Positions 15,676-32,075 of a stretch of DNA of 59,835 nucleotides are shown in pieces (position 1 is the first letter of the stretch; the number at the start of each line of letters is the position of its first letter). The DNA is from Candidatus Moraniibacteriota bacterium (GTDB lineage Bacteria; Patescibacteriota; Minisyncoccia; Moranbacterales; UBA1568). Under the pieces are notes generated by a model that was not told the origin of the DNA, did no database searches, and was given only the letters and a program-made list of their open reading frames with translations. The DNA lies in the NCBI GenBank assembly GCA_008012175.1, contig SSEF01000030.1, forward strand, positions 1 to 59,835, written 5' to 3'. A program made the translations under genes and the position numbers.

Positions 15676-16107
15676 CTAGCCCCTGGTCTCCGGATTGAAG
15701 TCCACCATCCACTCGATGCCGTATTTGTCACGGAACATGCCGAAGTAGGATCCCCAAGGACTGTCGCCGATCGGAAACTCGACGCTCCCACCCGCGGACA
15801 ATCCCTGAAACAGTCTATCTGCCTCTTCCTTGCTTTCGACATTGATCGAGATCTTGCTCCGGTTCTCGTTTTCATTCGTCCGTCCCATACTCTCGGGCAC
15901 ATCATTGCCCATCAGCATATTGCCGCCGATCGGGAGCGCGATATGCATGATCTTGTTCGCCTCGTGTTCCGCCACGGGAAAGTCCGGTCCCGCCATATCC
16001 CGGAAGCGCGCCACCCGAGCAAACTCTCCGCCAAAGACCGATCGGTAGAACTCAAACGCTTCCTCGGCATTGCCATTGAAGTTGATGTACGGATTGATAG
16101 TGGTCAT
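15676..16107 (-). CDS. VOC/glyoxalase family protein (PhnB-like)
   Basis: 143 aa. INPYINFNGNAEEAFEFYRSVFGGEF...FRDKYGIEWMV is typical of PhnB-like VOC proteins. Confidence 0.75.
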   Translation of the reverse strand: MTTINPYINFNGNAEEAFEFYRSVFGGEFARVARFRDMAGPDFPVAEHEANKIMHIALPIGGNMLMGNDVPESMGRTNENENRSKISINVESKEEADRLFQGLSAGGSVEFPIGDSPWGSYFGMFRDKYGIEWMVDFNPETRG

Positions 16108-16231
16108 AGTGTTTCTTGCTAGGGTTAGCTAAGTATTTACGGCTTCATTTTTAGACGACTCAAGGGCATTATATACACTCTCTGTGCAAAGAAGGAGGTA
16201 TTAGATATTTAGTCGCACCTCTCATGTAGTT

Positions 16232-16999
16232 TTACGAACCAGAAATCCTATCCAAAAAAAATTTTGTTTCAATGATCACGAGAAATGTATGAAGAAATCC
16301 CTTTTTTGCCTCCTCAAAAGTTGAATTTGTTTTTAATTCCCTATGCTCTATTTTTTCGTTGAAATCCTTAGAGCAGCCACAATAATGCTGGAGGGCCCCC
16401 AGTAAATCAATCTCTCTTTCACTTTTTCCTAACTCACGAAACTTACTAAGTATTTTTTTAAATCGTTCGTTCGTGTTATTTCTACTCATTCCTGCTGTAT
16501 CTATCTCCAACTTCCTGCATACTAACTCTAAGAAATCTTCATAGGCCAACAGGCAATAATGCCCGACCTCTGAGTAATCATCTCTATCCTTATCAAATAA
16601 AATTTTTTCTGCATTATTTAAATGCGCCCTAACACTAGGGTAATCAGTACCGAGAGTATCGTCTGAAAGGTTTCTCATCTCGTTGATTATATCGTTGTGT
16701 GTTCTGAATGGCTTTATCTCACCAATATTATCAATAATGACTTCAAATTCATTATTGTGCATTTTTCGTTGGTCGTAACCAATAAACTTGATAAACCGAC
16801 ATTTTTCAAAGTCATTCAGTGTTTCCAATAAAGCAGCCTGATCCTTAAATAAAGGTCCTTCTGCAACAAGGCCGCGTTCTGTCCCGCCGATACACTCAAT
16901 ATCAGAAATCTTAAATCTGATTCTCTCAAAAACTGAGACTAACTTCTTTATATGCCGCATGCAAATTTCGTGCTCCCTATATTTTTGCAACCTCGCCAT
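16232..16999 (-). CDS. Hypothetical protein (helical C-terminal half, possibly Abi/HEPN-like)
   Basis: 255-aa ORF in very AT-rich DNA. No motif I can assign firmly. A C-terminal EKIEHRE and the surrounding helices vaguely resemble abortive-infection C-terminal domains. Confidence 0.5.
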   Translation of the reverse strand: MARLQKYREHEICMRHIKKLVSVFERIRFKISDIECIGGTERGLVAEGPLFKDQAALLETLNDFEKCRFIKFIGYDQRKMHNNEFEVIIDNIGEIKPFRTHNDIINEMRNLSDDTLGTDYPSVRAHLNNAEKILFDKDRDDYSEVGHYCLLAYEDFLELVCRKLEIDTAGMSRNNTNERFKKILSKFRELGKSEREIDLLGALQHYCGCSKDFNEKIEHRELKTNSTFEEAKKGFLHTFLVIIETKFFLDRISGS

Positions 17000-17267
17000 A
17001 TATTAAATGTGACTTAACCCGTGTGATCCCAATAAAAAACCGGCTTTCTCATTCCAATGGACGCCAAGCAGTTGGCTTCCTGCCCCTCCACTATAGGACA
17101 AATCCCCAGACCCCTCTAGGGGCCTGGGGATTGTCTTTGCGGGCATCATCGGTCTAGAACTTTGAGAAATCAAGCCGTTGAGGGATTTCTTGGAGGTCTT
17201 AGCCGACGAGCAGATTGAGGTGATTAGGTCGCGGTTTCGAGAAAAAATGCGACAAAAACGACAGTAC

Positions 17268-17927
17268 TCAAGCTATTTTACTCTCCTCAACTAGTTTCGT
17301 TAAATAAGGCCAGATTTTGAACTTTTTCAGCACTTTCTCTGGATCGTAGATCTCATACCATGGTGTGAGCCTAATAGTGTTCTTTTGGCCCTCCACGGGC
17401 GTAGAAACGGACTTTAAGAGCTCCTTGGGAGGTAATACACCCGCATTCTCTTTGATCAGAATAACAAGGAAGTTCGACTTAGGGACAACCCGCGCCTTAA
17501 GGACTCCTTCCCGAACTAACTTCTTTACGGTTGGAGTCTTCAGTTTTAGATAGGACTCTAGTTCCCAAGTGGAATACCAGTATTTGTTGTTATAGCAGAT
17601 CTTTCCTGGGATTTTCTTTTTATTCACGGCATCTTGGCAAGCGAGGCATTTCTTTCCCCATTTGTCATACCAGAGCTCCTCATCCTTGATAGAGATATGG
17701 CAAATGCCACAGGTATAGGTTTTTCCATCCATAAGAGAGAAACCTTTTGGGGAGTCCTTTAGTTTCTCTTTCAGTTTGAGCTCAGCGAAATGGATGTCGA
17801 GCAAAACATCGAAAAGACCGACAAGGTTCCGGGCAGACTCAGCCGCCTCTTCATATGTGATTTCCTTCCCGTACTTCTTCTTATAGATTTCTTGGAACTC
17901 TTTGACTGTTTTTTCTTTCAGTTCCAT
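17268..17927 (-). CDS. Hypothetical zinc-ribbon protein with a possible excisionase-like HTH
   Basis: 219 aa. CGIC...CLAC cysteine pairs, then WYSTWELESYLKLKTPTVKKLVREGVL (HTH-like). Divergent from the ParB-methylase gene. Confidence 0.5.
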   Translation of the reverse strand: MELKEKTVKEFQEIYKKKYGKEITYEEAAESARNLVGLFDVLLDIHFAELKLKEKLKDSPKGFSLMDGKTYTCGICHISIKDEELWYDKWGKKCLACQDAVNKKKIPGKICYNNKYWYSTWELESYLKLKTPTVKKLVREGVLKARVVPKSNFLVILIKENAGVLPPKELLKSVSTPVEGQKNTIRLTPWYEIYDPEKVLKKFKIWPYLTKLVEESKIA

Positions 17928-18175
17928 AAATTATGGTCTTAAGAATTACAGCTAGCTGAAATTGACTCGTGACAAAGTTTTAAAAAGTATCTATACTTAT
18001 TCTACAAGCACTTTGCTAATTCCAGCAGTTACTTTTGAAACGTTGCTTACAGCAACTCTTTATTTCTGTAAGAACGCCGCTCAACCGAAAGAAGAGTTCA
18101 TATTCTTGAATATGCGAATGGTCGAGTATCAAAAATATTACCCTTAGGGTGTGTTTTTGGACTCGGTCGATAACC

Positions 18176-18210
18176 AACACCACCTCATTGGGGTGGTGTT
18201 TGTGTTTATT
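18176..18210 (+). terminator. Terminator-like hairpin in the leader upstream of the ParB-methylase gene
   Basis: aacaccacc (18176-18184) pairs perfectly with ggtggtgtt (18192-18200) across a 7-nt loop. Followed by tgtgtttatt. Confidence 0.5.
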
Positions 18211-18229
18211 CGTCACTTATTCAAAAACT

Positions 18230-19561
18230 ATGAACAAGCAAAATCTTACAATCGTCGAAGTTCCGATTCGTGAACTTCGGGCCTCAGAATATAACCCGAG
18301 GAAACATTCAGCGGAGCAAAGCGATCAACTCAAGGAATCCATCAAACGGTTCGGCATGGTTGATCCAGTGATCTGTAACGGTGCTCCGGAACGGAAAAAT
18401 ATCATCATCGGAGGTCACTTCAGAACTGAGATAGCCAAAGAGATGGGCCTGACGACAGTTCCTGTAGTCTATGTCCACATCACCGACCTTGCCAAAGAAA
18501 AAGAACTCAATCTTCGCCTTAATAAGAACACGGGAGAATTCGATCTCGACCTCTTGGCCAAATTCGATGAAGCCTTCCTCTCTGATATTGGCTTCGACAG
18601 TGAGGACTTGGATGATATTTTTCCGACCGAGGAAAATGTGGAGCAGTTCGATCTCAAGAAAGAGCTCGAAAAGTTAGATATAGCCGAAGTGAGCGTAGCG
18701 AAAGGTGATATCTACGACTTAGACGGGTCTCGTCTCATGTGCGGTGATTCCACCGTTGCATCCGAGGTCTTACAACTCATGGATGGAGAGAAGGCTGACA
18801 TGTGCCTCACTGACCCACCGTATATCCTCGATTACCTCAAAGGGAAAACGAAGCAGAAGGCAGACGATGTCACCACGGGTTTCGGTGCCAAGAAAAATAG
18901 GCGCTATCTGGAGACCGATGTCTTGCCGGACAACTTCACCGAACTCTGGATGGGCAATATCAGCAAAGTAGCCGATGAAAACTTCGCGATCCTCGTCTAT
19001 GAGAACTGGAAGAACATCCGAACGATTTGGAACGAGATGGAGAAGTGCTGGAAAGTGAAGAACATGATCGTTTGGCATCTCCCGAACCGAGTACAGGGAT
19101 TTTCCGCCAAGTACAAGTTCTTCAACAAGCACGACATCGCCATGGTGGGATCGAGCAAATCATTTGAACTCCAAAACGAGGATGAGGGAGATCTGTTGGA
19201 GAACGAATACGAAACCGCTCTCTATGCCATCAGCGGGAAACCGCACTGGGAATCCTATGAGAAAGGAAAGAAGATCTGCCCGACCGACTTCATCGAGCAT
19301 GTCGCGGCCGATGAGAAGTCTTCCGGACAGGGAGTCATCTTCGGTACCAAGCCCATAGAGATCCTCATTCCCTACATCAAAGTCCTGACCCAACGGAACG
19401 ATCTCATTGTTGAGCCGTTTGGTGGGAGTGGTTCAACCTTGATAGCGGCGACCAAGATGAACCGTCGTTGCTATCTCATGGAGAAGGTACCGGCCTATGC
19501 CGAAATCATTCTCAAGCGGTGGGAAAAAGAGACAGGCAAGAAACGGAAGAAAGTAAAGTAG
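18230..19561 (+). CDS. ParB-like nuclease domain fused to an N4/N6 DNA methyltransferase
   Basis: Start chosen at ATG 18230 (MNKQNL...). ParB-N motifs (YNPRKHS, GGHFRTEIAKEMG). Methylase motif IV DPPY (CLTDPPYILDY) and motif I EPFGGSGSTLIAA. Confidence 0.85.
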   Translation: MNKQNLTIVEVPIRELRASEYNPRKHSAEQSDQLKESIKRFGMVDPVICNGAPERKNIIIGGHFRTEIAKEMGLTTVPVVYVHITDLAKEKELNLRLNKNTGEFDLDLLAKFDEAFLSDIGFDSEDLDDIFPTEENVEQFDLKKELEKLDIAEVSVAKGDIYDLDGSRLMCGDSTVASEVLQLMDGEKADMCLTDPPYILDYLKGKTKQKADDVTTGFGAKKNRRYLETDVLPDNFTELWMGNISKVADENFAILVYENWKNIRTIWNEMEKCWKVKNMIVWHLPNRVQGFSAKYKFFNKHDIAMVGSSKSFELQNEDEGDLLENEYETALYAISGKPHWESYEKGKKICPTDFIEHVAADEKSSGQGVIFGTKPIEILIPYIKVLTQRNDLIVEPFGGSGSTLIAATKMNRRCYLMEKVPAYAEIILKRWEKETGKKRKKVK

Positions 19562-19562
19562 T

Positions 19563-20030
19563 ATGATCGACGACAAGACCAAGCAGAAACTGCTCAAGGA
19601 GCTCGAAAAAACGGGTAATATCTATTTGGCTTGTCTCAAGGTGGGCATTGATCGGTCTACCCATTACCGATGGCTTGACTCGGACAAGACGTTCAAGAAA
19701 CAAGCGGGTCAGGCCATTCGGCGGGGTAAAGAGAATAGCTGTGACATAGCGAAGCACGCGCTTATGCTCAAAGTGAAGGATAAGGACATGCGGGCGATAG
19801 AATACTTACTCAGCCACAATGATCCGGCGTACAAACGGAAGCAAACGAGTAATGTAGTGATTGTTCACAAGAAAGTAAATCCTTTACCTTTTCCGGTACG
19901 GAAAACACTGGAGGAAGAGTTTGATGAGTACGAGTTTGTGGATGACTGCAATGATTATAGTCTTGATGGAAAGAGGCTATCACAAGGCTCAGTTACACCA
20001 AAGGACAAGGAAAAACCTGATAACAGCTAA
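19563..20030 (+). CDS. HTH protein resembling a phage terminase small subunit / transcriptional regulator
   Basis: 155 aa. GNIYLACLKVGIDRSTHYRWLDSDKTFKK is the HTH pattern common in small terminase-like proteins. Starts 2 nt after the methylase stop. Confidence 0.45.
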   Translation: MIDDKTKQKLLKELEKTGNIYLACLKVGIDRSTHYRWLDSDKTFKKQAGQAIRRGKENSCDIAKHALMLKVKDKDMRAIEYLLSHNDPAYKRKQTSNVVIVHKKVNPLPFPVRKTLEEEFDEYEFVDDCNDYSLDGKRLSQGSVTPKDKEKPDNS

Positions 20031-20039
20031 GAGTACTTC

Positions 20040-20606
20040 TCAGCGTAGATTTAGAGAATGTTTTCGTAGCGCCTCTTTTATTTCCTGATGACGAGGAAAA
20101 GTTATTGCGACGAGATTCCAAAACTTCCTCGAATGATTAAATTCCTTGAGATGGCAAAGTTCATGGACCACAATGTAGTCCTGCACTTTCTCCGGGAGAA
20201 AGAGGAGTTTGTAATTGAAGTTAAGATTCCCTTTCCTTGAGCAGCTCCCCCAGCGAGTCTTCTGGTTCTTTATGTTTATTTTGTTGTAGCGGAAGTTATA
20301 GAACTCACTGAAGTACTTAACCTTTTGTTCTACAACTCGAAACGCGTCCTCCTTGTACTTCAAGTAATCATCGTGACTGTACCTGGATACCAAGCGGCCC
20401 TGAAATTGCTTAAAGAAACTGATTTTTGAGAGAAGCCAATCCGATTTCTCTTTTATGAACTTTTCTATCATCGTTTCCCGAAGATCATGGGGCATTGTCA
20501 CCACAATGGTCCCGTCACAGTAGACGGCCAATCGAAGCCTCCGTGCCCGTCGACTTTTTCGGAGGGTGTAGGATATCGTTTTGTTTTTGAGTTTTATTTT
20601 CTGCAT
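20040..20606 (-). CDS. DUF45/YgjP-like (M48 family) zinc metallopeptidase
   Basis: 188 aa. WGSC...HELCHLKEFNHSRKFW (HExxH). This family is commonly encoded next to hsdR. Last gene of the hsd operon. Confidence 0.8.
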   Translation of the reverse strand: MQKIKLKNKTISYTLRKSRRARRLRLAVYCDGTIVVTMPHDLRETMIEKFIKEKSDWLLSKISFFKQFQGRLVSRYSHDDYLKYKEDAFRVVEQKVKYFSEFYNFRYNKINIKNQKTRWGSCSRKGNLNFNYKLLFLPEKVQDYIVVHELCHLKEFNHSRKFWNLVAITFPRHQEIKEALRKHSLNLR

Positions 20607-20609
20607 AAA

Positions 20610-23516
20610 CTAGAACTTCTTGACCACGATGTCGACCAAACGATTGAGGTATTTGTGAAAATCATCTACCGTCACTCGCCCACGGTATTCTTTCAGTACA
20701 AGTTCCTGAATGATCCGTTTCGTTTCTTTGAGAAACTCTTCTCGTTTTGAAGATTCCTGCCAACCTCCGTCCAATATGTCTTCAAGTCTCTTGGTCATGT
20801 CTTGAATAAACTCTCGAAGAGCATTTGCATCACCTTTGAGGAATTCTTCAGAGGCTACAAAAAGCCCGTACTCCTTGAGGGAGAAGCCGAGCTCCTTCGC
20901 TTCGTCAGCCTTTTTCTTGATATCGGTCAGAAGCTCTTGGTAACGTTTGATACGCTCAGCGAGGTCAATCTGGTGTTGTTCAAATTCCTTGCGAATAGCC
21001 GCCAGTCGCTCACTGAATTTCTTGTATGCCGGGTTGGTATCGACATTGATTGAGATCTCTTGTTTGAGCATCTTTTCCAAATTGAGCGCCTTTTCCTCAT
21101 CATCCATCTTGTTCAGGCGTTCCATAGTGTAGAGATCGTTGATATTGAGTTCGCGGAAGTTCTTGGTAATACCCTCATAGTCAACCTGGTCTTGAATGAG
21201 TCGTTTTACCTTTTCCCCGTATTCAGCCAGAAGCTCGGCATCAGACGATTTCGTTCCATACTCCTTATCAAACGCAAGGTACACCGAAGTCAGCCATTCA
21301 AATCGACGCACGTACTCTTTGAGAAAAGGATCCGGCGAAAGCACTTCGAAGAGGAGTTTAAGGCGGGCATATTTCTCACGGAAGTATTTCTGCTTTTCGA
21401 AATTCTCAGCAAAAATCTTCAGCACCCGTCGCAGATTATCAATGGAGGGATCCTCGATATTGATACCCACGAAAAGACCCATAATATCTTCGAGCACGGC
21501 AGTAAATTCTTCCTTGAGCTTATCGATATTGATCATGGCTGAATCAACTACGCTCTCATCAAAATCAAGCGCTTTATACAGACTCCGGGTGATACCGTAG
21601 TAATCAATAACCTTGCCAGCGCCTTTGTTTGGATAGACTCGGTTGGTACGCGCGATGGCTTGGAGCAAGTTATGATCCCAGAGCGGCTTATCGAGATACA
21701 TTACTTGTTCCACCGGAGCATCAAAACCCGTAAGGAGCATATCGCAGACCAAGAGAAACCGGAGAGGATTTTCGGGATCTTTGAACTCAGCGATTATCTT
21801 CTCGCGTTTCGCCTTTGTTGTGTTGTATTTTCTTAGATCCTCTATGTCGGTATTGGGATCTCCTGGGGAATAGACCACTTCGGACCAGTCCTTGGGGATG
21901 AGCTGATCCAGTAGTTTCTTGTACTTGGCCGTGGCTTCGCGGTCATAACAGACAATCTGCGCCTTGAAACCGGATGGCTCGACGTAGAGACGATAGTGCT
22001 CCACGATATCGCGGGCGACGGCCTCCATTCGCCGGTCCAGCTTCACGATCGCTTCTTTTTTCCCGTACTTTTTGGCTATAGCATCCTTGTCCTTATCAGA
22101 AAGATCGGTGGTCATTGTCTCAAACTGCTCATCGAGCTTTTCTTCATCAATAAAGAACTTGGAGAGACGAGCCTCATAAGTAACTGGTAGTGTTGCTCCA
22201 TCATCGATTGCTTGTTGGATTGAATAATAATCAAGATAGCGTTCACCATCTTCGCCAAAGTTCCTGTGGGTATTCAAAGTCTTCCTGTCTATCGGCGTTC
22301 CGGTAAAACCAAAGAAGAACGCATTTTTCATGGCGCTTCGCAGGTTGATGGCTGAAACGCCTTCATTGTCACGGTGAGCCTCGTCAGAAAGCACGATGAC
22401 ATTTTCATCCAGATTTTGTATGGCATTTCCAAGTTCGGAAAACTTCTGGATAGTGGAGACAAATATTCCTCGTTCGGGCGATTGGATCTTTTTCTCCAGA
22501 TCAGTCCGGGATTCAACACGGATAACGTTCTTACCACCACAATTTACAAATGTTTCGTAGATCTGATCATCCAAATCGATACGGTCAACCAACACAAACA
22601 CCTTCGGATTTTTAAGTGTCTTGTTATAGCGTAGTTTCCAGGCCGTAAAGAACATGGTGAGCGACTTACCAGAACCTTGGGTGTGCCAGATGAGTCCTCG
22701 CTTTTTCTTACCGTCGAGTACTCGCTCCACAATCTTATTCGTCGCTCGGAGTTGCTGGTATCGGGCAATTTTTTTCACTTTCTGCTCCTTTTCTTTTTCA
22801 AAGATGATGAAGTTCTGAATGATGTCCAGAAGCTTCTCCTTCGAAAGTAAGGCTGTCAGTGTTCGCTCGAGTTCCTCATCAGTATCCTTTTCTTTTCCTT
22901 CGTCTTTCCATTGCAGAAAGTACTGTGCCGGAGCATAGGTGGCCCCATAGACGGTTTTGAGTCCGTCAGTGGCGATGTTGAAGCAATTTGGCCAGAATAA
23001 CTTGAAAGCGTTGCGCTCATAGCGTTTCAATTGACCGACTGCATTGGCATAGCTCACATTGGTAGCAGCAGTTGGGCTTTTTGCCTCGATATCAACGATC
23101 GGCAACCCGTTCAAAAACACCATAATATCGGGGCGGATATTCTCGGTGTTCCCTTCGAAATAGAATTGGTTGGTAACGATAAATTGATTGTTTGCGACAT
23201 CTTCAAAATCAACCAGTTTGTAGTCTCGCATTTTCTGAGTTTCTTGATCCTTGATGTTGATCCCATTTTTCAGCACATTCAAGAAATCCTCATTGCTATC
23301 ATGCTTCTTTACTTCACGGACAACAGAAAGTGCCTCATCGTCATCAATCTTGTTCACTCGTTTGACTGCCTCCAACAAAAGAGAGGTGATGAGATATTCA
23401 TTTTCGAATTCACGAAGCTTGCTGAACTCTTGTGGAGAGACATATTCAAAACCAAGCGTCTCTTTCAGAAACTTGATGATGTAGTTTTCTACAGTGTGTT
23501 GTTCGTTGAATTTCAT
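20610..23516 (-). CDS. hsdR: Type I restriction endonuclease subunit R
   Basis: 968 aa. N-terminal nuclease region, helicase motif I HTQGSGKSLTM, DEAH box (VLSDEAHR), and the LLVCDMLLTGFDAP and QAIARTNR motifs. Confidence 0.93.
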   Translation of the reverse strand: MKFNEQHTVENYIIKFLKETLGFEYVSPQEFSKLREFENEYLITSLLLEAVKRVNKIDDDEALSVVREVKKHDSNEDFLNVLKNGINIKDQETQKMRDYKLVDFEDVANNQFIVTNQFYFEGNTENIRPDIMVFLNGLPIVDIEAKSPTAATNVSYANAVGQLKRYERNAFKLFWPNCFNIATDGLKTVYGATYAPAQYFLQWKDEGKEKDTDEELERTLTALLSKEKLLDIIQNFIIFEKEKEQKVKKIARYQQLRATNKIVERVLDGKKKRGLIWHTQGSGKSLTMFFTAWKLRYNKTLKNPKVFVLVDRIDLDDQIYETFVNCGGKNVIRVESRTDLEKKIQSPERGIFVSTIQKFSELGNAIQNLDENVIVLSDEAHRDNEGVSAINLRSAMKNAFFFGFTGTPIDRKTLNTHRNFGEDGERYLDYYSIQQAIDDGATLPVTYEARLSKFFIDEEKLDEQFETMTTDLSDKDKDAIAKKYGKKEAIVKLDRRMEAVARDIVEHYRLYVEPSGFKAQIVCYDREATAKYKKLLDQLIPKDWSEVVYSPGDPNTDIEDLRKYNTTKAKREKIIAEFKDPENPLRFLLVCDMLLTGFDAPVEQVMYLDKPLWDHNLLQAIARTNRVYPNKGAGKVIDYYGITRSLYKALDFDESVVDSAMINIDKLKEEFTAVLEDIMGLFVGINIEDPSIDNLRRVLKIFAENFEKQKYFREKYARLKLLFEVLSPDPFLKEYVRRFEWLTSVYLAFDKEYGTKSSDAELLAEYGEKVKRLIQDQVDYEGITKNFRELNINDLYTMERLNKMDDEEKALNLEKMLKQEISINVDTNPAYKKFSERLAAIRKEFEQHQIDLAERIKRYQELLTDIKKKADEAKELGFSLKEYGLFVASEEFLKGDANALREFIQDMTKRLEDILDGGWQESSKREEFLKETKRIIQELVLKEYRGRVTVDDFHKYLNRLVDIVVKKF

Positions 23517-24514
23517 ACCTTAAACTTATCTTTTAGAAATTGATAGGCAGCATCTGAATACTTTTGGACATAGTGTTGTCGACTCACCTGGACAGCCTGG
23601 TGATATTTGTCGTTACCCTTCATGTTCAGTTCCGTTATCTTATTTAGGACCACATGTCTACCTATACCTAACTTTTCAGCAAGCGTAGTAAGTATGTATG
23701 GATAGTCCTTGTTGATATCGGTTTTTTTAACAAAAACTGGAAGTGCTTCACGTTGAGTTGATCCTCCTTTTGCGATGTCAACATTAATTGTGTGGTTCTT
23801 TGGCGCTTGCACGAACACTACTTTTAATAACTCGGCTCTTGAGAGAAAAGATCCCAAAGCACCACGATTAATGAGTCGGCGGTTGCTGGATTGTTTAAAT
23901 TGTTTTTCAAAATCATCCTGTGCAATATATTGAGTACCTGAATATGCAACACCACGCTCTAACAGATATAGAAGCCTCCTTTGTTTTTCTGACTTTTTCC
24001 CTACCTTTAACAATCCTTCAATGCTGTCTGCATATGTTAGATTACTATCCGTTGAAATTGATAAAAGGCTAGCTTTGAATAAGTCATCATGCCCTCGAAA
24101 CTGTGTAATGAATAGTTTTTTATAAGTTTGATAAGAAGAAAACATGAGATAGTGAAGCACATCTGTATGAATTTCAGGTAATACATCGTGCGAGGCCTCG
24201 TTACGAAGAGATATGAGTTGCTGTATTGCCTGTTGTTCGATATCACCTATTTTTTTGTGATCATTGTAGATCTTCCAAACAGACTGTTCAGCACTAATAG
24301 TTTTACTCCGATCTCTAGGATCAGTGACACTACTACCTAGTTTCAAGAGCACTGCTTTGCTGAGTAGCTCAATCGCATTACTCATCAAAATCAAAGCTGA
24401 TTCACTGCGATATGAGTTACTGATATTGTTAAAATTATTTATAGCATCAATGAAAGCTCGTTTAGAGCTATTCACAAGTAGTGTTCTTTTGTAAATACCT
24501 CGAGCCATAATCAA
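23513..24514 (-). CDS. HEPN-like (RNxxxH motif) protein with a possible C-terminal HTH, embedded between hsdS and hsdR
   Basis: 333 aa. LILMSNAIELLSKAVLLKLG helix followed by SLRNEASHD (Rx4H). C-terminal ILTTLAEKLGIGRHVVLNKITEL is HTH-like. No P-loop. 4-nt overlaps with both hsdS and hsdR. Confidence 0.5.
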   Translation of the reverse strand: MIMARGIYKRTLLVNSSKRAFIDAINNFNNISNSYRSESALILMSNAIELLSKAVLLKLGSSVTDPRDRSKTISAEQSVWKIYNDHKKIGDIEQQAIQQLISLRNEASHDVLPEIHTDVLHYLMFSSYQTYKKLFITQFRGHDDLFKASLLSISTDSNLTYADSIEGLLKVGKKSEKQRRLLYLLERGVAYSGTQYIAQDDFEKQFKQSSNRRLINRGALGSFLSRAELLKVVFVQAPKNHTINVDIAKGGSTQREALPVFVKKTDINKDYPYILTTLAEKLGIGRHVVLNKITELNMKGNDKYHQAVQVSRQHYVQKYSDAAYQFLKDKFKV

Positions 24515-25569
24515 ATCGTTCTTACTTTCCCACTCAACAAATCTTTCATCAAACCTTTTTTAAGAAAATCCAGTTTCACTTTCAACTTTTTATTAACTAA
24601 GATTTTTTCGTCAACTGACTGAAGTATGCTCGCGATTTTCCGTTGGCTACTCTTGTCACTTGGAAAGGCTACTATCTTACTGTGAACATCATTTCTATTG
24701 AGAGTTGGTACTCCAGTGCCAGAATAAAAACGCTCGAGCTTAAAGTTCTGAAGGAAGTAGTAAACAAACATTGGATCATTATTGTAGAATTCTTTCACAT
24801 ACAACGTTGTATTTAGAGGCCAGAAATCTCGTTCAACATAAAATACCTTTCCAATTGTACCGCTCCTTCCAGTTATAACACCTGGACCTTTTACCTTAGC
24901 TTCCTTGTGGGTATCGGTAATGCCATTAGAACTAACAAGTGGGAATACGCCCCGTTCTCGTTTATGTGTTGGTAGGTCAAAACCTCTCTGTAAAACCATG
25001 AGGTTATCAAATCGACCGATATGCCACCCCTTCTTTTTCTTAAAAAACTTTTGTAATAATCCTCTTTTGAGCTTTTCGGTGGTAGCAATAATCTCATCAG
25101 TTTTCTGAATCTCTTCATCTACTGACCCTAAAATCTCAGCGACCTTCTCTTGTTCAGGAAGTGGCGGGATTTCAATCTGAAGCCTGTAGACTTCTTCCCG
25201 ATTTAGTCCAGGTGTGCCCGAGGCGGTATTCATCTTGTCGAGAGCGAGAGTCTGAAGTTTGTAAAACAGCCAGCGAAGATCTAGGGATGGATCACTTTCA
25301 ACATAGTATGTTGTATCTATTGGCCAGAAGTCTTCATCCGACCAGGTTATAGCACCTATCGTTCCTTTACGCCCAACAATGATTCCGGGACCTTTCACTA
25401 GGGATTCAGTATGTAGACCAACACGGCCATTTGAGCCAAAAACAGGAACATGCCCAGAAACTCTTTTTGATTCGGGTAAACTTGCGCCATATTGTAACTG
25501 TATACGGGAGTCAAACCGTCCGCTTTGCCACCCGTTTACAGTCCTATTGTTAGCAGCTTTTTTCTTCAT
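24511..25569 (-). CDS. hsdS: Type I R-M specificity subunit S
   Basis: 352 aa. Two target-recognition regions separated by conserved helices (LPEQEKVAEILGSVDEEIQ...LKRGLLQKFF and QRKIASILQSVDEKI...LKKGLMKDLLSGKV). Confidence 0.88.
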   Translation of the reverse strand: MKKKAANNRTVNGWQSGRFDSRIQLQYGASLPESKRVSGHVPVFGSNGRVGLHTESLVKGPGIIVGRKGTIGAITWSDEDFWPIDTTYYVESDPSLDLRWLFYKLQTLALDKMNTASGTPGLNREEVYRLQIEIPPLPEQEKVAEILGSVDEEIQKTDEIIATTEKLKRGLLQKFFKKKKGWHIGRFDNLMVLQRGFDLPTHKRERGVFPLVSSNGITDTHKEAKVKGPGVITGRSGTIGKVFYVERDFWPLNTTLYVKEFYNNDPMFVYYFLQNFKLERFYSGTGVPTLNRNDVHSKIVAFPSDKSSQRKIASILQSVDEKILVNKKLKVKLDFLKKGLMKDLLSGKVRTI

Positions 25570-26155
25570 ATTGAATCAAATACTTCTCCACAACCTGCTT
25601 ATTAAAAGCACAGAGTAACATCCGCAGTTTTGCCAATACTTCGAAAAACTTCATTCGCGCTAACGGTTCTATGATCGGACTCATTTTGATAACAGACATA
25701 CCTTTCTGGTCTATTTCCTGATGGAAGTGCTCCTCATTGAGGATAGTATTAAAAACCATTCTCACAGACAGGTTTTTTTGACCAACTTCGATACAAATCG
25801 GATCTTGATCAAGAATCTTTTGGTATGCTTCCAGCCATTCGGATACCCTCTGTGAATCAAAATTCTTTTCGATAAAAAACTGACAGATGTTTTCGAAGTT
25901 AAACTTATTCTTATCTTTCAGGATAAACATCCGCACATCCATCAAAAATGATTTTACCAAATCTTCGTTCGGAAACTCAGACGTGACTTTACCCGAAGCG
26001 CCAGCCTTCACTGAAATAGTAACTTTCTGATGATTTAATGCTGAGTACTTATCGGCACAAAGCACATGTGCTTTTTCCTTAAAGCGCCCAATATCTCGAA
26101 TGTTTATTTGGCCGGCGATCAATTTAGTCATGCGTTTTAGTGAGATCAAATTCAT
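25550..26155 (-). CDS. Hypothetical protein, third gene of the cassette embedded in the hsd operon
   Basis: 201-aa ORF (alternative ATG at 26131). Overlaps the upstream TIR-like gene and the hsdS start. No recognisable motif and no TM helix. Confidence 0.55.
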   Translation of the reverse strand: MNLISLKRMTKLIAGQINIRDIGRFKEKAHVLCADKYSALNHQKVTISVKAGASGKVTSEFPNEDLVKSFLMDVRMFILKDKNKFNFENICQFFIEKNFDSQRVSEWLEAYQKILDQDPICIEVGQKNLSVRMVFNTILNEEHFHQEIDQKGMSVIKMSPIIEPLARMKFFEVLAKLRMLLCAFNKQVVEKYLIQYEEKSC

Positions 26156-26813
26156 CGAGTCTGTCTTTAAGACCTAAGACATGATCAATATAGAAGTTAT
26201 GATTGCCGATAAAATCATCCCACTTTACGGGGTATATGTACGAATGATCACTTCCGTAGTGATGGTAGTTTCCACACGTAGCACAAAGATTACGCTTGTG
26301 CTCATTCCGATTGAACATGTTGGACGAAATTATATTAAAGAAGTTTTGTGTTTGAACTTCAGTCATGCAACTATAGTTTTTTATTCCGTGATCATAACTA
26401 CTAGTCTCGTCTGGCAGAATGATCGCCAAAACCCCATTTGTATAACTGGTACGATCGTCTCTTGTTTTTTCCCTTAGGGAGTATGCTACTTCTCTGGGAA
26501 TCCATTGGAGCTTTTCGAACCCTGCGCCCTTCATATTCTTGGAAATGAGAACGATCGTAACTGTGCTGTCGTATATCCTGTCGTATAGTTTTTGTTGGAT
26601 TACTTCCTCAGTGAGATGACTGAGATCTTCATCATCCTTCTCTGCTTTGTTGGTGTGATCAGTCAAAACTCTCTGCATCAAATGATCCACATAATCACGC
26701 GCAGTTAAATAATTCCCATTCTCGATACCAGATGCCCAGTGACTCCAATCACAATTTGTATTTTGCCTTACGGTCTTGTCACCATACTTGTAGCTGATGA
26801 ATACCTTTGCCAT
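26124..26813 (-). CDS. TIR-like domain protein (MTH538/DUF1863 type, ThsB-like)
   Basis: 229 aa. KVFISYKYGD at the N-terminus, STVTIVLISKNM, WIPREVAYSL (candidate catalytic Glu), GVLAIILPD. This pattern matches my recollection of the DUF1863 TIR-like family. Confidence 0.6.
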   Translation of the reverse strand: MAKVFISYKYGDKTVRQNTNCDWSHWASGIENGNYLTARDYVDHLMQRVLTDHTNKAEKDDEDLSHLTEEVIQQKLYDRIYDSTVTIVLISKNMKGAGFEKLQWIPREVAYSLREKTRDDRTSYTNGVLAIILPDETSSYDHGIKNYSCMTEVQTQNFFNIISSNMFNRNEHKRNLCATCGNYHHYGSDHSYIYPVKWDDFIGNHNFYIDHVLGLKDRLDEFDLTKTHD

Positions 26814-26816
26814 AGA

Positions 26817-27224
26817 CTATTTCATGTAAAATATCACGTACATGGCAGCAGTCAGGAGTAGTCCGTAAAAATACCGTAGCGTTGGTGAAAACATACAAAA
26901 AATAACTGTATTCTGCGCCTTTCCTTGAAACTCTTTCACATCCATAGAGAAGTCTATCTCTTCCTCACATTGTTTCCGTACCTTGTTGTACAGATCCCGA
27001 AACATCTTTTCTTGAGAAAGAAAGTACCCATCGTAGCACCAAAAAAGAACGGTGAGAATTGCAAGAAAAACAATTGGCAACTTTCCACCATCAACTTGCG
27101 TTAGTAGCACTAGAACACCAGCGATAAGAGTTACAATCCATCCACGAAGATAGAACAAGTTTCCAGCCATTCTTGAGATGACGCCCTGTATAAGTTCAAG
27201 GTGTTTCAGCTTCTTGTCTTCCAT
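26817..27224 (-). CDS. Small membrane protein with 3 TM helices (candidate effector)
   Basis: 135 aa. N-terminal amphipathic LELIQGVISRMAGNLFYLRGW, then hydrophobic helices WIVTLIAGVLVLLTQV, LPIVFLAILTVLFWCY and FYGLLLTAAMYVIFYM. Lies 6 nt after the hsdM stop and 3 nt before the TIR-like start. Confidence 0.6.
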   Translation of the reverse strand: MEDKKLKHLELIQGVISRMAGNLFYLRGWIVTLIAGVLVLLTQVDGGKLPIVFLAILTVLFWCYDGYFLSQEKMFRDLYNKVRKQCEEEIDFSMDVKEFQGKAQNTVIFCMFSPTLRYFYGLLLTAAMYVIFYMK

Positions 27225-27230
27225 AGGTCT

Positions 27231-28928
27231 TTAATACTTCAGCTCATTCAAATAGTTAGTAACCTTCTTATCAACCTCCACGCGTTCCTTCTCAAGATTC
27301 ATCAATTCCTTGCGCACTGCTGAGACATCAATCTTTTCCTCTTTCTCACCATTCTCTACATATCGTCGGACATTGAGGTTATATTCATTTTCTTCAATTT
27401 CCTTAAGATCAATCACTCGGGCGTAGCCATCGACATCCTTGAAGTTGTCGTACGTCTTCACGATTTTCTGGATATCCTGATACCGGAGTGAGTTCTGATT
27501 CTTCCCTTCGGAGAAGTCCTTTTCTGCATCGATAATCAAAACCTTCCCTTGTCGTTCTTTTGGTTTATTCCTATTGAAAATAATGATAGCTACGGGAATA
27601 CCCACCCCATAAAACAACTTGGCGGGCATGGCGATAACAGCTTCAATAAGATCATTTTTTAGCAACTGTTCCCGAATACGGCCAGGCGTATCTCCCTTGA
27701 ACAAAACTCCATGGGGGCAAACAACGCCTGCACGACCATTTGAATTCATGGACTTGATAATATGCAGGATAAACGCGAAGTCCGCATTCTTCTGTGGAGG
27801 CATGTCATACCCGTCGAGACGACCAAAACGGTCAGACTTAAACAGTTCCCATTCCCATTCTTTGATCGAGTATGGAAAGTTGGCCACGCAAATATCGAAG
27901 GTCTTGAGTGAGCCGTTTGGATTGAGAAACTGTGGATTGGCAAGCGTGTCACCACGCTGAATATCCGCGCTGTCGAGGCCGTGCAAGAACATATTGATCT
28001 TGGCGATAGCGAAAGTCCCGATATTAATCTCCTGACCATAGAGATACAGCGTCCGGGCTACTGCTTCACCTTCCTTTTCCTTGAGATTATGAAAAGCCTC
28101 AAGGAGAAATCCTCCTGAACCCACGGTTGGGTCGTATATATGATCCTTCTTGTGGGGCTTGAGAATTTGAATGATGACCCGCTCAACTTCACGGGGAGTG
28201 TAGAATTCACCACCTTTTTTCCCGGCATCCGCAGCGAACTGCTTGATGAGGTACTCGTACGCGTCTCCCAAAACATCAGAGTTGATATAGGTGTCGCCGA
28301 AGTTGTACTGGGAAAAGTGATTGATGAGTCGCTGGAGTGTTTCGTTCGGAAACTTGTCCTTATTGGCGAAGTCGAGATCATCGAATATTTTGTCGAGCTT
28401 CGGACTGTTCGCATTGGTCAGCTTGTCGAAAACCTCGTTTAATTTCTGACCGATATTTTCCGAGCGTTCTTCAACTACTGACCAGCGGCACTCTTTCGGA
28501 ACCTGGAAACGGTGATTGTAATCTGCACGGGCAAGAGTTTCATCTTTGAAATCTCCCATAAGCTTTTGATACTCCTCGTCCCATACATCACTGATACGCT
28601 TGTAAAACAGGAGGCCAAAAATGTATTTCTTGTAATCAGAGCTATCAATTTTTCCTCGAAGAATATCAGCGCTCTTCCAAAGAAATTGCTCGAGCTGTGG
28701 AAGCGTGAGCTTGCTACCCATTTTATCAACGATTGCTTGGATATCTTGGGGACGATATTTACGGTCGCCACGCTTGCCAACCCGTAGAGGCACAAGGATT
28801 CCTTCTTTCTCCCAGTTCCGCAGGGTGTCCTGATGGATACTGAATATCTCCGCTACCTGCCCAATTGAGAGTAGCTCGGGCATCCCTTTGAGTTTTTGTT
28901 GGATATCTTTACGCATAATGTGAGTCAT
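27231..28928 (-). CDS. hsdM: Type I R-M methyltransferase subunit M with an N-terminal MerR/excisionase-type HTH extension
   Basis: 565 aa. LSIGQVAEIFSIHQDTLRNWEKEGILVP (HTH). HsdM_N region (LWKSADILRGKIDSSDYKKYIFGLLFYKRISD). Motif I DPTVGSGGFLLEA. Motif IV VANFPYS. Confidence 0.9.
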   Translation of the reverse strand: MTHIMRKDIQQKLKGMPELLSIGQVAEIFSIHQDTLRNWEKEGILVPLRVGKRGDRKYRPQDIQAIVDKMGSKLTLPQLEQFLWKSADILRGKIDSSDYKKYIFGLLFYKRISDVWDEEYQKLMGDFKDETLARADYNHRFQVPKECRWSVVEERSENIGQKLNEVFDKLTNANSPKLDKIFDDLDFANKDKFPNETLQRLINHFSQYNFGDTYINSDVLGDAYEYLIKQFAADAGKKGGEFYTPREVERVIIQILKPHKKDHIYDPTVGSGGFLLEAFHNLKEKEGEAVARTLYLYGQEINIGTFAIAKINMFLHGLDSADIQRGDTLANPQFLNPNGSLKTFDICVANFPYSIKEWEWELFKSDRFGRLDGYDMPPQKNADFAFILHIIKSMNSNGRAGVVCPHGVLFKGDTPGRIREQLLKNDLIEAVIAMPAKLFYGVGIPVAIIIFNRNKPKERQGKVLIIDAEKDFSEGKNQNSLRYQDIQKIVKTYDNFKDVDGYARVIDLKEIEENEYNLNVRRYVENGEKEEKIDVSAVRKELMNLEKERVEVDKKVTNYLNELKY

Positions 28929-29092
28929 GATTCCTTAGCACCCACAGTATACATCTCAGAATTGTGTACGTCAAGTGTTCATAGGTTATCATATGTCTTT
29001 TGGTATATTTATGCTTTAAAATAAGGGGTTTTTAGAGGTTATTTCTCCTCTAGACAAGTATCCGGGTCTGCGTCATTCATGGGGTAAAGGCT

Positions 29093-30463
29093 ATGAGTAA
29101 CCACCTAGATACCAGAAAAGTGGCTCTAGAGAGCCAAATAGATCCATCAACCACTACTAAAGTGAGGTATTGCCTTTATGCCCGAAAGAGCACCGAATCC
29201 GAGGAGCGACAGGTACTTTCCATCGATTCCCAAGTAAAGGAGATGCTTCAGATCGCTGACCGGGATGGGTTGGAAATTGTCGAAATCCGAAGAGAGAGTC
29301 ACTCTGCCAAGTCATCAGGTGGCCGACCTGTTTACAACGAGCTTATTGAGGACATCCGTAAGGGTCGCTTCAACGGGATCCTCACCTGGGCACCCGATCG
29401 ACTCAGCCGAAACGCTGGTGATTTGGGATCGCTTGTCGACCTCATGGATCAGAAACTTCTCCTTGAGATTCGTACGTATGGGCAATGCTTTACCAATTCA
29501 CCGAATGAGAAGTTTCTTCTCATGATCCTCGGCTCACAGGCAAAGCTCGAAAACGACAATCGAGGCGTGAATGTGAAGCGAGGACTCAGAATGCGCTGCG
29601 AGATGGGTATGTGGCCGACCTGTGCCCCAACCGGATATCTCAACGTCATGTCGCCCGATCGGAAAGGGCAGGTAATGATCGATCCGGAACGAGGTCCGAT
29701 TGTAAAGAAGATGTTCGAGAGGGTGGCTATGGAACGCTGGAGCGGACGGAAGCTTTACCACTGGCTCAAGTTTGACCTCAACTTCAAGTCCAAAGGCAAC
29801 AAAAATCTCTCGCTCAGTAATATTTACCGCATTCTCCAAACTTCTTTTTACTACGGCCCATTTGAGTATCCACGAGGAAGTGGCAAATGGTACGAAGGTA
29901 AGCATGAACCTCTCATTACTAAGGAGCTCTTCGATCTCACTCAGGAACAATTGAAACGAGACCGGATTACTCGAGATAACAAGGAGTTCGCCTTCACGAA
30001 ACTCATTACCTGTGGGCTCTGTGGATCGGGTATCACCGCCGATGAGAAGTACAAGAAACTGAAAAGCGGAGATACGGCAACGTACATCTACTATGGGTGC
30101 ACCCGATCACGAGATCTCTCCTGCAAGCTGGGATATCTCCGAGAAGAAGAGTTGATCGCTCAGATGGCGAAGATGATTGACGTGATTGATATCAACGAAA
30201 TCGGGCTGAAGCGTCAGTTCGAGGACGAAGTCGAACGCTACAACAAATTCCAGCATACCGTGCTCCGGATGCATGGTCAGGAAGCAGAGATTGAGAAGAA
30301 ACAAGAGTTCGATATCCGAACCTACGCCAAGTACATCCTGCGAGAAGGACGAATGATTGAGAAACGAGAGCTTTTGGCGAGTCTCAAAAGCCGATTGATC
30401 CTAGGAAAAGATAAGAAATTAACTCTCAGGAAGTATGAAACCACCATAAAACCTGAATGTTGA
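29093..30463 (+). CDS. Large serine recombinase (resolvase catalytic domain + recombinase domain + zinc ribbon)
   Basis: 456 aa. YARKSTESEERQVLSIDSQ (catalytic Ser region), APDRLSRN, CGLCGSGI...YYGC zinc ribbon, C-terminal coiled coil. Divergent from hsdM. Confidence 0.9.
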   Translation: MSNHLDTRKVALESQIDPSTTTKVRYCLYARKSTESEERQVLSIDSQVKEMLQIADRDGLEIVEIRRESHSAKSSGGRPVYNELIEDIRKGRFNGILTWAPDRLSRNAGDLGSLVDLMDQKLLLEIRTYGQCFTNSPNEKFLLMILGSQAKLENDNRGVNVKRGLRMRCEMGMWPTCAPTGYLNVMSPDRKGQVMIDPERGPIVKKMFERVAMERWSGRKLYHWLKFDLNFKSKGNKNLSLSNIYRILQTSFYYGPFEYPRGSGKWYEGKHEPLITKELFDLTQEQLKRDRITRDNKEFAFTKLITCGLCGSGITADEKYKKLKSGDTATYIYYGCTRSRDLSCKLGYLREEELIAQMAKMIDVIDINEIGLKRQFEDEVERYNKFQHTVLRMHGQEAEIEKKQEFDIRTYAKYILREGRMIEKRELLASLKSRLILGKDKKLTLRKYETTIKPEC

Positions 30464-30540
30464 TTTTTGTCCCTTAAAAAGCTATACTCGAGGTACAATA
30501 CTGCCTAAACTCGTAGCAATACGGGCATGGCGCAATAAAA

Positions 30541-30695
30541 CCCTTAGCAACAGAAACGGCCCTATGGCCGGTACTTGTTGCTAAGGTCGACATCCGAAAG
30601 GGTGCCGAGGCAGTCCGAAAGGATTGTCACCGGTTCGTAGGGCCCTTTGTGTTCTCAGAACTGGATTCTCCAATTTAATAATCCCTTAGCAACAA
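30541..30695 (+). other. GC-rich palindromic/structured element between the recombinase gene and the next ORF (ncRNA, riboregulatory leader or recombinase/repressor binding site)
   Basis: Perfect 11-bp inverted repeat ccttagcaaca (30542-30552) / tgttgctaagg (30576-30586). Two GAAA-tetraloop hairpins at 30591-30604 and 30611-30626. Long-range complement 30558-30572 / 30629-30644. A second copy of cccttagcaaca lies at 30683-30694, 5 nt before ATG 30700. Confidence 0.5.
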
Positions 30696-30699
30696 TAAT

Positions 30700-31251
30700 A
30701 TGGAGCAGCCGCTTCAGCCTTCGGGACAGGCTCAAAACGTCCCGGTGAAGAAGGCATGGTACAAGAAATGGTGGGTCATAACTATCGCAGTCATAATGGT
30801 TCTCGGCGCCATTGGGAGCGCCGGCGAAGACAGCAAAAAAGTGACGGACAATCAGTCAACAACTACCGTAACTCCTGTTGAGGAAACAAAAAAGGCCGAG
30901 CCAGAAAAAGTGATGGAACCAGAAAAGATCACTCCAGAGGTAGTCGTGACGAGTGCCGCCCTTTCGAAGGCGTACTCAGAAAATGAAGTCTCTGCTGATG
31001 CAAAGTACAAAGATAAGCTCATCGAAGTTTCTGGGAAGGTTGTCAGTATCGACAATGGTACGTTCGATAACGAAATCATCATAAGGCTTTCTGATGGCCA
31101 ATATGATTTCAACGGACTACATTGTTACATGAAAGAGAGCGAGCGAGATAAGGCTCTAACAATGAAAAAGGGTCAGACAGTAACTCTCATTGGCAAAGGT
31201 AACAGTGCGACTATTGGATCGCCCGTACTGAAAAATTGCTGGGTAAAGTAA
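30700..31251 (+). CDS. Membrane-anchored OB-fold (tRNA_anti-like) protein
   Basis: 183 aa. N-terminal TM helix (WWVITIAVIMVLGAIGS), Glu/Lys-rich linker, then SAALSKAYSENEVSADAKYKDKLIEVSGKV, typical of the tRNA_anti-like OB family. Confidence 0.6.
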   Translation: MEQPLQPSGQAQNVPVKKAWYKKWWVITIAVIMVLGAIGSAGEDSKKVTDNQSTTTVTPVEETKKAEPEKVMEPEKITPEVVVTSAALSKAYSENEVSADAKYKDKLIEVSGKVVSIDNGTFDNEIIIRLSDGQYDFNGLHCYMKESERDKALTMKKGQTVTLIGKGNSATIGSPVLKNCWVK

Positions 31252-31271
31252 GTTAGTAGTATCTACATACT

Positions 31272-31294
31272 AAAACCGCCAGTCAGGCGGTTTT
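31272..31294. terminator. Bidirectional rho-independent terminator between convergent genes
   Basis: aaaaccgcc / ggcggtttt perfect stem with a 5-nt loop and A/T runs on both sides. Overlaps the stop codon of the 31283-31891 gene. Confidence 0.75.
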
Positions 31295-31891: not shown

Positions 31892-31920
31892 ACAACGCTA
31901 GAAGAATCAATATACCATAA

Positions 31921-31946: not shown

Positions 31947-31987
31947 TAAAGGGTGTTTAGGTCACCCTCGATACTATGAGCTTGATG

Positions 31988-32075
31988 CGGAGAGGGAGGG
32001 ATTCGAACCCTCGAGAGCGATTAAGCCCTGCCACGTTAGCAGTGTGGTGCCTTCAGCCAGCTCGGCCACCTCTCC
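31988..32075 (-). tRNA. tRNA-Ser (anticodon GCU), long variable arm, no encoded CCA
   Basis: Reverse complement reads GGAGAGG-TG-GCCGAGCTGGCTGAAGGC-...CTGCTAA...-long variable arm-GAGGGTTCGAATCCCTC-CCTCTCC-G. Acceptor and T arm pair perfectly. The anticodon loop CT-GCT-AA has one A-C mismatch closing the stem. Confidence 0.85.

Follow-up and report, generated by a model that had tools for sequence, protein, structure and literature searches.

What does a protein with a ribonuclease motif and no ATPase do inside a type I restriction-modification (R-M) operon, between hsdS and hsdR, and is it governed by the enzyme encoded around it? The question is raised by a gene on contig SSEF01000030.1 of a Candidatus Moraniibacteriota bacterium (assembly GCA_008012175.1), which we analysed over a stretch of 59,835 nucleotides, referred to below as the window. 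The product of this gene combines a DUF3644-type HEPN domain with a predicted winged helix-turn-helix (wHTH), and is called here the DUF3644-wHTH protein. An earlier note made from the letters of this DNA had likened the position of the gene to that of prrC, and the gene does lie, as prrC does, between hsdS and hsdR. It is most likely one of the exchangeable cargo genes that a mobile type I R-M operon carries at this position (the hsdS-hsdR slot), and on balance we consider it probable that it encodes an autonomous HEPN RNase defence effector, with the operon providing co-expression and co-mobility, not obligatory control. Autonomous control is favoured because relatives of the protein occur without an R-M system and because the same slot accepts unrelated stand-alone systems.

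Family membership was established with profile searches (residue numbers throughout are counted from the TTG of a 333-residue open reading frame, ORF). The Pfam family DUF3644 (PF12358) matched residues 13-163 over positions 2-158 of its 183-position model (E = 2.9e-14, 53.5 bits against a cut-off of 27.6), which bears out a link to this family that the earlier note had raised. The PADLOC model PDC-S19 (PDLC04951) matched residues 12-330 over positions 7-336 of 357 (E = 6.9e-23); seven more PDC-S19 sub-models in PADLOC matched as well, and only PDC-S19 models did so. Our description of PDC-S19 is based on this match and on the general account of the PDC candidates in Payne et al. 2024. No NCBIfam model matched the protein, and PHROGs yielded a single match over the N-terminus, to phrog_9605 (function not known, E = 2.5e-9). 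A search of 5.8 billion proteins returned 31 relatives of 319-344 residues at 35-70% identity, all with PF12358, and a profile search of 1.84 billion representative proteins returned 1196 relatives at E ≤ 1e-3 and 239 at E ≤ 1e-10, many of them 350-370 residues long, with matches at the HEPN end as well as at the C-terminal end. No relative was found by tblastn in the plasmid and phage collections.

Two conserved motifs, both of which are typical of HEPN proteins, were identified in the N-terminal half. The stretch SLRNEASHD (residues 102-110) contains R104-x4-H109, the sole R-x(4-6)-H of the protein. By a rough estimate from residue frequencies, about 0.3 occurrences of Rx4H are expected by chance in 333 residues, which is not rare; the motif is nevertheless significant here because R104, N105 and H109 are invariant in an alignment of 31 homologues and stand in register with the catalytic motif of HepT (5YEP). 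The second conserved element of HEPN proteins, the acidic Ex3[KR] (PMC3710099), is represented by E49 and K53, which are likewise invariant in that alignment and lie in the helix LILMSNAIELLSKAVLLKLG (residues 41-60). The earlier note had pointed out this helix and had read the Rx4H stretch as a HEPN signature, and it had suggested that the protein is ATPase-less; the invariant residues and the modelled HEPN fold agree with the former, and for the latter a pattern search found no Walker A motif ([AG]x4GK[ST]) in the protein, which also lacks any match to Pfam AAA_13, to other Pfam ATPase domains or to the PADLOC PrrC model (E up to 0.1). The protein has no cysteine, and therefore no zinc finger.

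An AlphaFold2 (AF2) model built on the homologue alignment had a mean predicted local distance difference test score (pLDDT) of 82, reaching about 90 or more over residues 11-140, which form an N-terminal helical domain. When compared with PDB using Foldseek, the best match was 2hsb (probability 1.00, template-modelling score on the target 0.76, root-mean-square deviation 2.9), and further matches included HepT (7bxo and 5yep) and the HEPN domain of sacsin (3o10), the rest being spurious helical membrane proteins. The structural comparison with HEPN families that the earlier note had proposed thus returned only HEPN domains as credible matches. Searching PDB with the family profile also gave HepT 5yep as best match (E = 0.03), with lRNeavH aligned on lRNiavH. 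The N-terminal half of the protein is thus modelled as an all-alpha HEPN fold.

At the other end of the protein, the last 158 residues were modelled separately, with confidence only over the last ~65. This part has a pLDDT of about 90 and consists in the model of helices at residues 275-282 and 286-295, a beta-hairpin at 305-319 and a helix at 321-331. The stretch ILTTLAEKLGIGRHVVLNKITEL (residues 274-296), which had been pointed out beforehand as resembling a helix-turn-helix (HTH), coincides with the first two of these helices, and by Foldseek the last ~60 residues resemble domains that bind DNA in RacA, pSK1 Par, members of the MerR family and an excisionase (probability 0.97-0.99, E ~ 0.2); the Pfam HTH_11 match at the C-terminus was weak (E = 0.068). 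A common origin of this wHTH and the MerR-type HTH of the HsdM encoded in the same operon was considered and rejected, as the two showed no similarity on comparison. The middle region (residues 164-265) had no Pfam match and no PDB match by sequence profile or by structure. A degenerate restriction-endonuclease fold, as in EC042_2821, was also considered for this region, but no PD-(D/E)xK pattern was seen among the invariant residues when the alignment was read by eye. The predicted architecture is hence a DUF3644 HEPN domain, followed by a middle region of no assignable fold and a wHTH-like C-terminus.

We then compared the genomic setting of the gene with that of its homologues in 30 loci: 24 come from a set with a single genome for each species, the other 6 from metagenomic contigs. 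Seven of these loci share with the window the order hsdM ... hsdS, DUF3644 gene, zero to two further genes, hsdR and ygjP. HsdS is encoded at position -1 of the DUF3644 gene in all 8 R-M-embedded loci, the window counted, and junctions in the embedded loci are overlaps or gaps of at most 10 nucleotides; two loci (L004 and L030) have other genes between the DUF3644 gene and hsdR. At least 13 loci are free-standing, with at least 2.5 kb on each side and no detectable HsdM, HsdS or HsdR. The 103 genes that neighbour the free-standing homologues are heterogeneous, the 25 Pfam families listed for them including resolvases, Mu/TniB transposition genes, Mrr-type nucleases and housekeeping genes. No conserved partner gene was found in the 30 homologous loci, nor any outside R-M operons, and no MNT nucleotidyltransferase domain was detected in the genes scanned around the DUF3644 gene or as a conserved feature of the 30 loci. 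An RtcB RNA ligase gene (Pfam 1.2e-130) was observed among the six nearest neighbours of one free-standing DUF3644 gene, a single case but a notable one, in that an enzyme of RNA repair would here adjoin a putative RNase toxin. In two loci the homologue is split in two ORFs (L013, 7923-8936; L018, 7953-8996), and these may be pseudogenes or assembly frameshifts.

The R-M-embedded members fell into two clades of a neighbour-joining tree, placed among free-standing ones. Identities to the window for DUF3644, HsdR and HsdM, respectively, were 61, 62 and 67% in L001, and 38, 34 and 47% in L004. In L027 and L029, by contrast, the DUF3644 proteins were 44-46% identical to that of the window and HsdM and HsdR 69-75%, a pattern that would arise either from cargo that evolves much faster than the enzyme or from its replacement by a homologous allele.

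To what extent the slot is reserved for this gene can be judged from sister operons of the same R-M lineage. A survey anchored on HsdR covered 80 metagenomic loci (L031-L110) in which HsdR was mostly 61-85% identical to that of the window, two being at 39%. Both hsdS and hsdR were present in 50 of these loci; they were adjacent in 10 and separated by 1-3 genes in 40, and the 54 intervening genes formed 37 sequence clusters. None of these 54 slot genes encodes a DUF3644 protein, and one weak DUF3644-like match was located upstream of hsdS in L076. The commonest occupant was Shedu SduA (6 loci), and the slot of one sister operon held an AAA_13 ATPase of the PrrC/RloC type (E = 3.6e-78). Other cluster representatives were matched in Pfam or PADLOC to AriA- and PtuA-type ATPases, AbiLi, Abi_alpha, DUF4145 and Apea HEPN domains, Fic/SoFic, RmrA, PDC-S06, PDC-S13 and IS200 transposases, and many clusters had no match in either. 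Because 40 of 50 sister operons hold 37 unrelated clusters at this position, the hsdS-hsdR slot of this R-M lineage is a hypervariable hotspot for defence cargo, and the DUF3644 gene is one occupant of many. The hsdM-hsdS slot is likewise variable in the lineage. The earlier note had suggested a survey of the genes found between hsdS and hsdR: a DUF3644 gene does recur there, in 8 loci, but the unrelated clusters that otherwise fill the slot point to a general hotspot and not to a dedicated partnership.

The boundaries of the gene bear on how closely it is tied to the operon. Overlaps of 4 nucleotides with both hsd genes had been described, and on the hsdR side this holds, the stop codon of the DUF3644 gene overlapping the start of hsdR in an ATGA junction (GTATGAAA). 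On the hsdS side, however, a 4-nucleotide overlap exists only if the gene is extended to the TTG at 24514, from which the mechanically called ORF starts (23513..24514, minus strand). The real start is most likely the ATG at 24508, because all 31 homologues and the database copy of the window protein (P0001, 331 residues) begin with MARG. This ATG lies 2 nucleotides after the hsdS stop (ATT TGA TT ATG), with no obvious Shine-Dalgarno sequence before it. As judged from this start, hsdS and the DUF3644 gene appear to be abutted and not overlapping, an arrangement that is compatible with translational coupling. There was no sign of an internal promoter for the DUF3644 gene, counts of promoter and terminator sites in the operon being no higher than in shuffled sequence.

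If the protein is indeed an autonomous effector, it would, by analogy with other HEPN enzymes, dimerise so that R104, N105 and H109 make up an endoRNase site that needs no metal. The enzyme would be silent until an infection cue, probably a nucleic acid, is sensed via the middle or wHTH region, and once activated it would cleave host and/or phage RNA (tRNA, rRNA or mRNA), such that translation is blocked. It would thereby constitute an RNA-directed second layer of defence behind DNA restriction, for which the R-M operon would supply joint expression and joint mobility. Several points weigh against this reading. The PDC-S19 subfamily is a candidate defence family only and the RNase role of the window protein is predicted, the middle region is modelled with low confidence (pLDDT 47-77), and the wHTH call relies on Foldseek matches that combine high probability with an E of ~0.2. 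Beside the free-standing homologues, hsd genes were sought with profiles built from the R-M family of the window, and the tally of neighbouring domains covered 25 Pfam families, so that a distant type I system next to a few of these homologues could have been missed. Finally, in 6 of the 8 embedded loci, the window included, the DUF3644 gene comes directly before hsdR with overlapping or 2-nucleotide junctions, which fits a physical partnership with the restriction complex too.

Such a partnership is central to PrrC-like gating, in which the HEPN protein would be bound and held latent by HsdM, HsdS and HsdR and set free to act as an RNase when the complex is put out of action by an anti-restriction factor of a phage, so that it guards the restriction enzyme without an ATPase of its own. 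Gating of this type has been proposed in print for R-M-linked HEPN clades (PMC3710099), and it is in keeping with a slot identical to that of prrC and with the tight or overlapping junctions in the window, L001, L006, L025, L027 and L029. In the embedded clades, the divergence of DUF3644 roughly tracks that of HsdR and HsdM (L001, L004), which suggests a long association, and the best argument for gating is the invariable presence of HsdS at position -1 in embedded loci. The free-standing homologues without hsd genes nonetheless imply that the protein must be controllable without an R-M complex, while the hotspot explains its position, since the 37 unrelated clusters found in the slot of sister operons include Shedu and Fic, which are known to work alone. 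Gating is further disfavoured by the genes that separate DUF3644 from hsdR in L004 and L030, and by the identities in L027 and L029, which are more readily explained if the cargo was replaced or evolves fast than if it is a subunit that co-evolves with the enzyme. We consider gating by the restriction complex unlikely overall, and even more so its most specific form, an ATPase-less PrrC analogue docked on HsdM2S or HsdR2M2S that would become an RNase only once a phage anti-restriction protein has disabled the complex. If this were true, the type I restriction enzyme would have a minimal guard that senses infection by a logic unlike the NTPase- and dTTP-based control of PrrC.

Other roles that do not involve sensing by the restriction enzyme can be considered for the same gene. 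The placement of the operon in a low-GC (guanine plus cytosine) island with a serine recombinase next to tRNA-Ser, together with recombinase homologues in 21 sister loci, would suit an addiction or plasmid-exclusion module that stabilises the R-M island through post-segregational killing, or that clears incoming plasmids as proposed for the Ishtar HEPNs, whose DUF3644/DUF4145 HEPN proteins cause loss of the plasmid RP4 (bioRxiv 10.64898/2026.07.06.735840). Against such a module, there is no antitoxin-like neighbour, for instance an MNT nucleotidyltransferase, in the window or in homologous loci, no homologue in the plasmid collection, and no relation to the listed Ishtar proteins beyond the motif, and we regard this role as distinctly improbable, below either form of gating. 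The resemblance of the C-terminal module to the DNA-binding domains of the MerR family, RacA, Par and excisionases could instead indicate a non-catalytic regulator of the R-M operon or its cargo, whose wHTH binds operator DNA and whose HEPN domain serves to bind a ligand or RNA in the manner of the HEPN-like repressor MtlR, and some HEPN families are indeed non-catalytic (PMC3710099). Non-catalytic HEPNs typically lose the signature (PMC3710099), though, whereas R, N, H and Ex3K are invariant here at 35-70% identity; free-standing homologues have no conserved neighbouring operon to regulate, and the related HEC-08 requires its motif histidine for defence. A purely regulatory function is hence the least credible of these explanations, and a very remote one.

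Table 1. Positions in the window of the DUF3644-wHTH gene, its predicted parts and the surrounding operon and island
Feature	Position	Strand	Basis or remark
DUF3644-wHTH gene (PDC-S19-type)	23516..24508	minus	331 residues from ATG at 24508; stop codon 23513-23515
Predicted HEPN domain, residues 13-163	24026..24478	minus	Pfam DUF3644, AF2, Foldseek
Second HEPN motif E49-L-L-S-K53 (Ex3[KR])	24356..24370	minus	E49 and K53 invariant
Putative catalytic motif R104-N-E-A-S-H109 (Rx4H)	24188..24205	minus	Invariance, HepT alignment
Middle region, residues 164-265	23720..24025	minus	Invariant LLERG (184-188), Y196, F202, QAP (236-238)
Predicted C-terminal wHTH, residues ~266-333	23516..23719	minus	AF2, Foldseek
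hsdM, first gene of the operon	27231..28928	minus	Pfam N6_Mtase 3.5e-106, HsdM_N, MerR_1
Second cargo block, hsdM-hsdS slot	25550..27224	minus	135-residue membrane protein, 229-residue ThsB-like TIR protein, 201-residue protein
hsdS	24511..25569	minus	Pfam Methylase_S 8.6e-29; directly upstream of DUF3644 gene
hsdR	20610..23516	minus	Pfam HSDR_N, SWI2_SNF2, ResIII, T1R_D3-like, T1RH-like_C; directly downstream of DUF3644 gene
YgjP-like metallopeptidase gene, last of the operon	20040..20606	minus	Pfam YgjP-like 8.7e-43
Large serine recombinase	29093-30463	plus	Inside low-GC block
tRNA-Ser gene	31987-32075	minus	Adjoins end of low-GC block

The mobility of the operon is suggested by its surroundings (Table 1). 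The whole R-M operon and the large serine recombinase are contained in a block at ~16100-31900 with a GC content of 0.39-0.47, against 0.52-0.57 in the flanks. This block looks like an integrated island; no direct repeats of at least 16 nucleotides that could be attachment sites were found flanking it. Of the sister loci surveyed, 21 (among them L047, L048, L052, L073, L086, L087, L089, L090 and L106) encode a homologue of the recombinase, in most cases at 58-79% identity, and in those inspected the gene is divergent and just upstream of hsdM. The R-M operon and the recombinase thus appear to move as one mobile unit. A homologue of the YgjP-like zinc metallopeptidase was detected in 69 surveyed loci, and its gene comes after hsdR wherever an R-M locus was examined, all 7 of the other R-M-embedded DUF3644 loci included, which makes ygjP a near-constant fourth gene of this R-M lineage.

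The best promoter-like site upstream of hsdM was located at 28974-28946 on the minus strand, such sites being no more frequent than in shuffled sequence. HsdM itself carries an N-terminal MerR-type HTH (28700-28928, minus strand; MerR_1 1.3e-10), a fusion shared with the HsdM of L025, L027 and L029 and not with that of L030, and this HTH may act as an autoregulator of the operon. In the hsdM-hsdS slot, the cargo block has overlapping junctions. The membrane protein encoded there was matched to PADLOC PDC-M50A (4.6e-43) and the TIR protein to ThsB (7.8e-63), with no ThsA gene nearby, while the 201-residue protein had no family match in Pfam, PADLOC or NCBIfam. L048, L090 and L106 contain the membrane-TIR pair in this slot too, and L067 and L088 contain the full set of three genes, a recurrence that suggests a conserved membrane-TIR module different from the PDC-M50 pair as defined.

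Just past the R-M operon, on the plus strand (18149-20030), lie genes for a 470-residue fusion of ParB_N and an N6_N4 DNA methyltransferase and for a 155-residue HTH protein. L036, L044 and L065 have a close homologue of the fusion (67-82% identical) in the vicinity of the R-M operon, and L031, L036, L065 and L087 have weak homologues of the HTH protein (~32-34%). At the low-GC edge of the island, a 255-residue ORF (16232-16999, minus strand) had no Pfam or PHROG match.

Both the protein family and the gating hypothesis are already present in the literature and in a defence-system database, and the window adds one more diverged member. The DUF3644-wHTH case is therefore ordinary and on its own matters little. 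The operon is of modest use as a compact system in which to ask whether a HEPN protein that lacks an ATPase but occupies the slot of PrrC acts autonomously or depends on the restriction complex for its gating. In the R-M lineage to which it belongs (serine recombinase, hsdM, hsdS, hsdR and ygjP), two slots are hypervariable in their cargo, and one of these holds at least 37 unrelated clusters, many of them unannotated; the lineage represents a good hunting ground and a pool of possible new defence genes.

When set against known systems, the protein does not have the novel architecture that had been suggested for it. Anantharaman et al. 2013 (PMC3710099) had already assigned DUF3644 (the EC042_2821 family) to HEPN, listed wHTH as one of its fusion partners and recorded the family in R-M operons, and the window protein resembles this family in its Rx4H and Ex3K motifs, its wHTH and its R-M operon setting. 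It differs from the type protein EC042_2821, which has a C-terminal restriction-endonuclease-fold domain in place of the middle region and wHTH. The same study linked at least 16 HEPN clades to R-M systems and proposed, by analogy with PrrC, for R-M-linked HEPNs in general that they are reversibly inhibited by R-M subunits and freed when R-M is neutralised. Payne et al. 2024 (bioRxiv 10.1101/2024.01.29.577857) obtained the 145 PDC candidates of PADLOC from genes located inside BREX, DISARM and type I R-M systems; the match to PDC-S19, a candidate only, is full-length and concerns a single gene in a type I R-M operon, and no architectural difference was detected.

Among experimentally studied proteins, HEC-08 is a DUF3644 protein that defends against phage and loses this activity when the motif histidine is mutated (bioRxiv 10.1101/2024.01.29.577857). 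The window protein is similar to it in having an N-terminal DUF3644 HEPN domain and in being embedded in another defence system, and HEC-08 likewise resembles HepT SO_3166 (5YEP). Unlike HEC-08, which has C-terminal zinc-finger or zinc-ribbon-like domains, it lacks cysteine and its C-terminus is modelled as a wHTH. HepT-MntA (SO_3166/SO_3165; 5YEP, 7BXO) provides the closest solved structures and the sole PDB match by sequence profile, with RNxxxH in register; the DUF3644 gene, however, has no adjacent MNT nucleotidyltransferase antitoxin, and its product is ~2.5 times longer, with the additional middle and wHTH domains.

Ishtar proteins act against plasmids as single-gene systems; their HEPN domain is of the DUF3644 or DUF4145 type and is accompanied by an additional C-terminal domain, and their genes often lie near defence genes (bioRxiv 10.64898/2026.07.06.735840). 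They are shorter than the window protein, with 164-261 residues among those considered from Table S3 of that study, and their C-terminal domain is beta-rich. Ishtar membership was rejected: hhalign of the family alignment against 10 Ishtar sequences gave a probability of 0.4%, with only 30 columns around the motif aligned, and Table S3 contains none of the signatures LLERG, SLRNE and VQAPK of the present family. As the DUF3644-type Ishtar2 sequence itself was not identified in that table, the two may still be distantly linked through the HEPN domain.

A parallel in genomic position is PrrC of the E. coli prr (EcoprrI) locus, an anticodon nuclease that is kept latent by the R-M complex and cleaves tRNA-Lys at the anticodon once activated, with which the window protein shares a HEPN-superfamily RNase motif and a gene placed between hsdS and hsdR, and, as for PrrC and RloC, its presumed role is RNA-directed second-line defence. 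It differs from both in lacking the N-terminal ABC-type ATPase with its Walker A motif and in having the HEPN domain at the N-terminus instead of the C-terminus. Unlike PrrC, finally, it has many relatives outside R-M operons.

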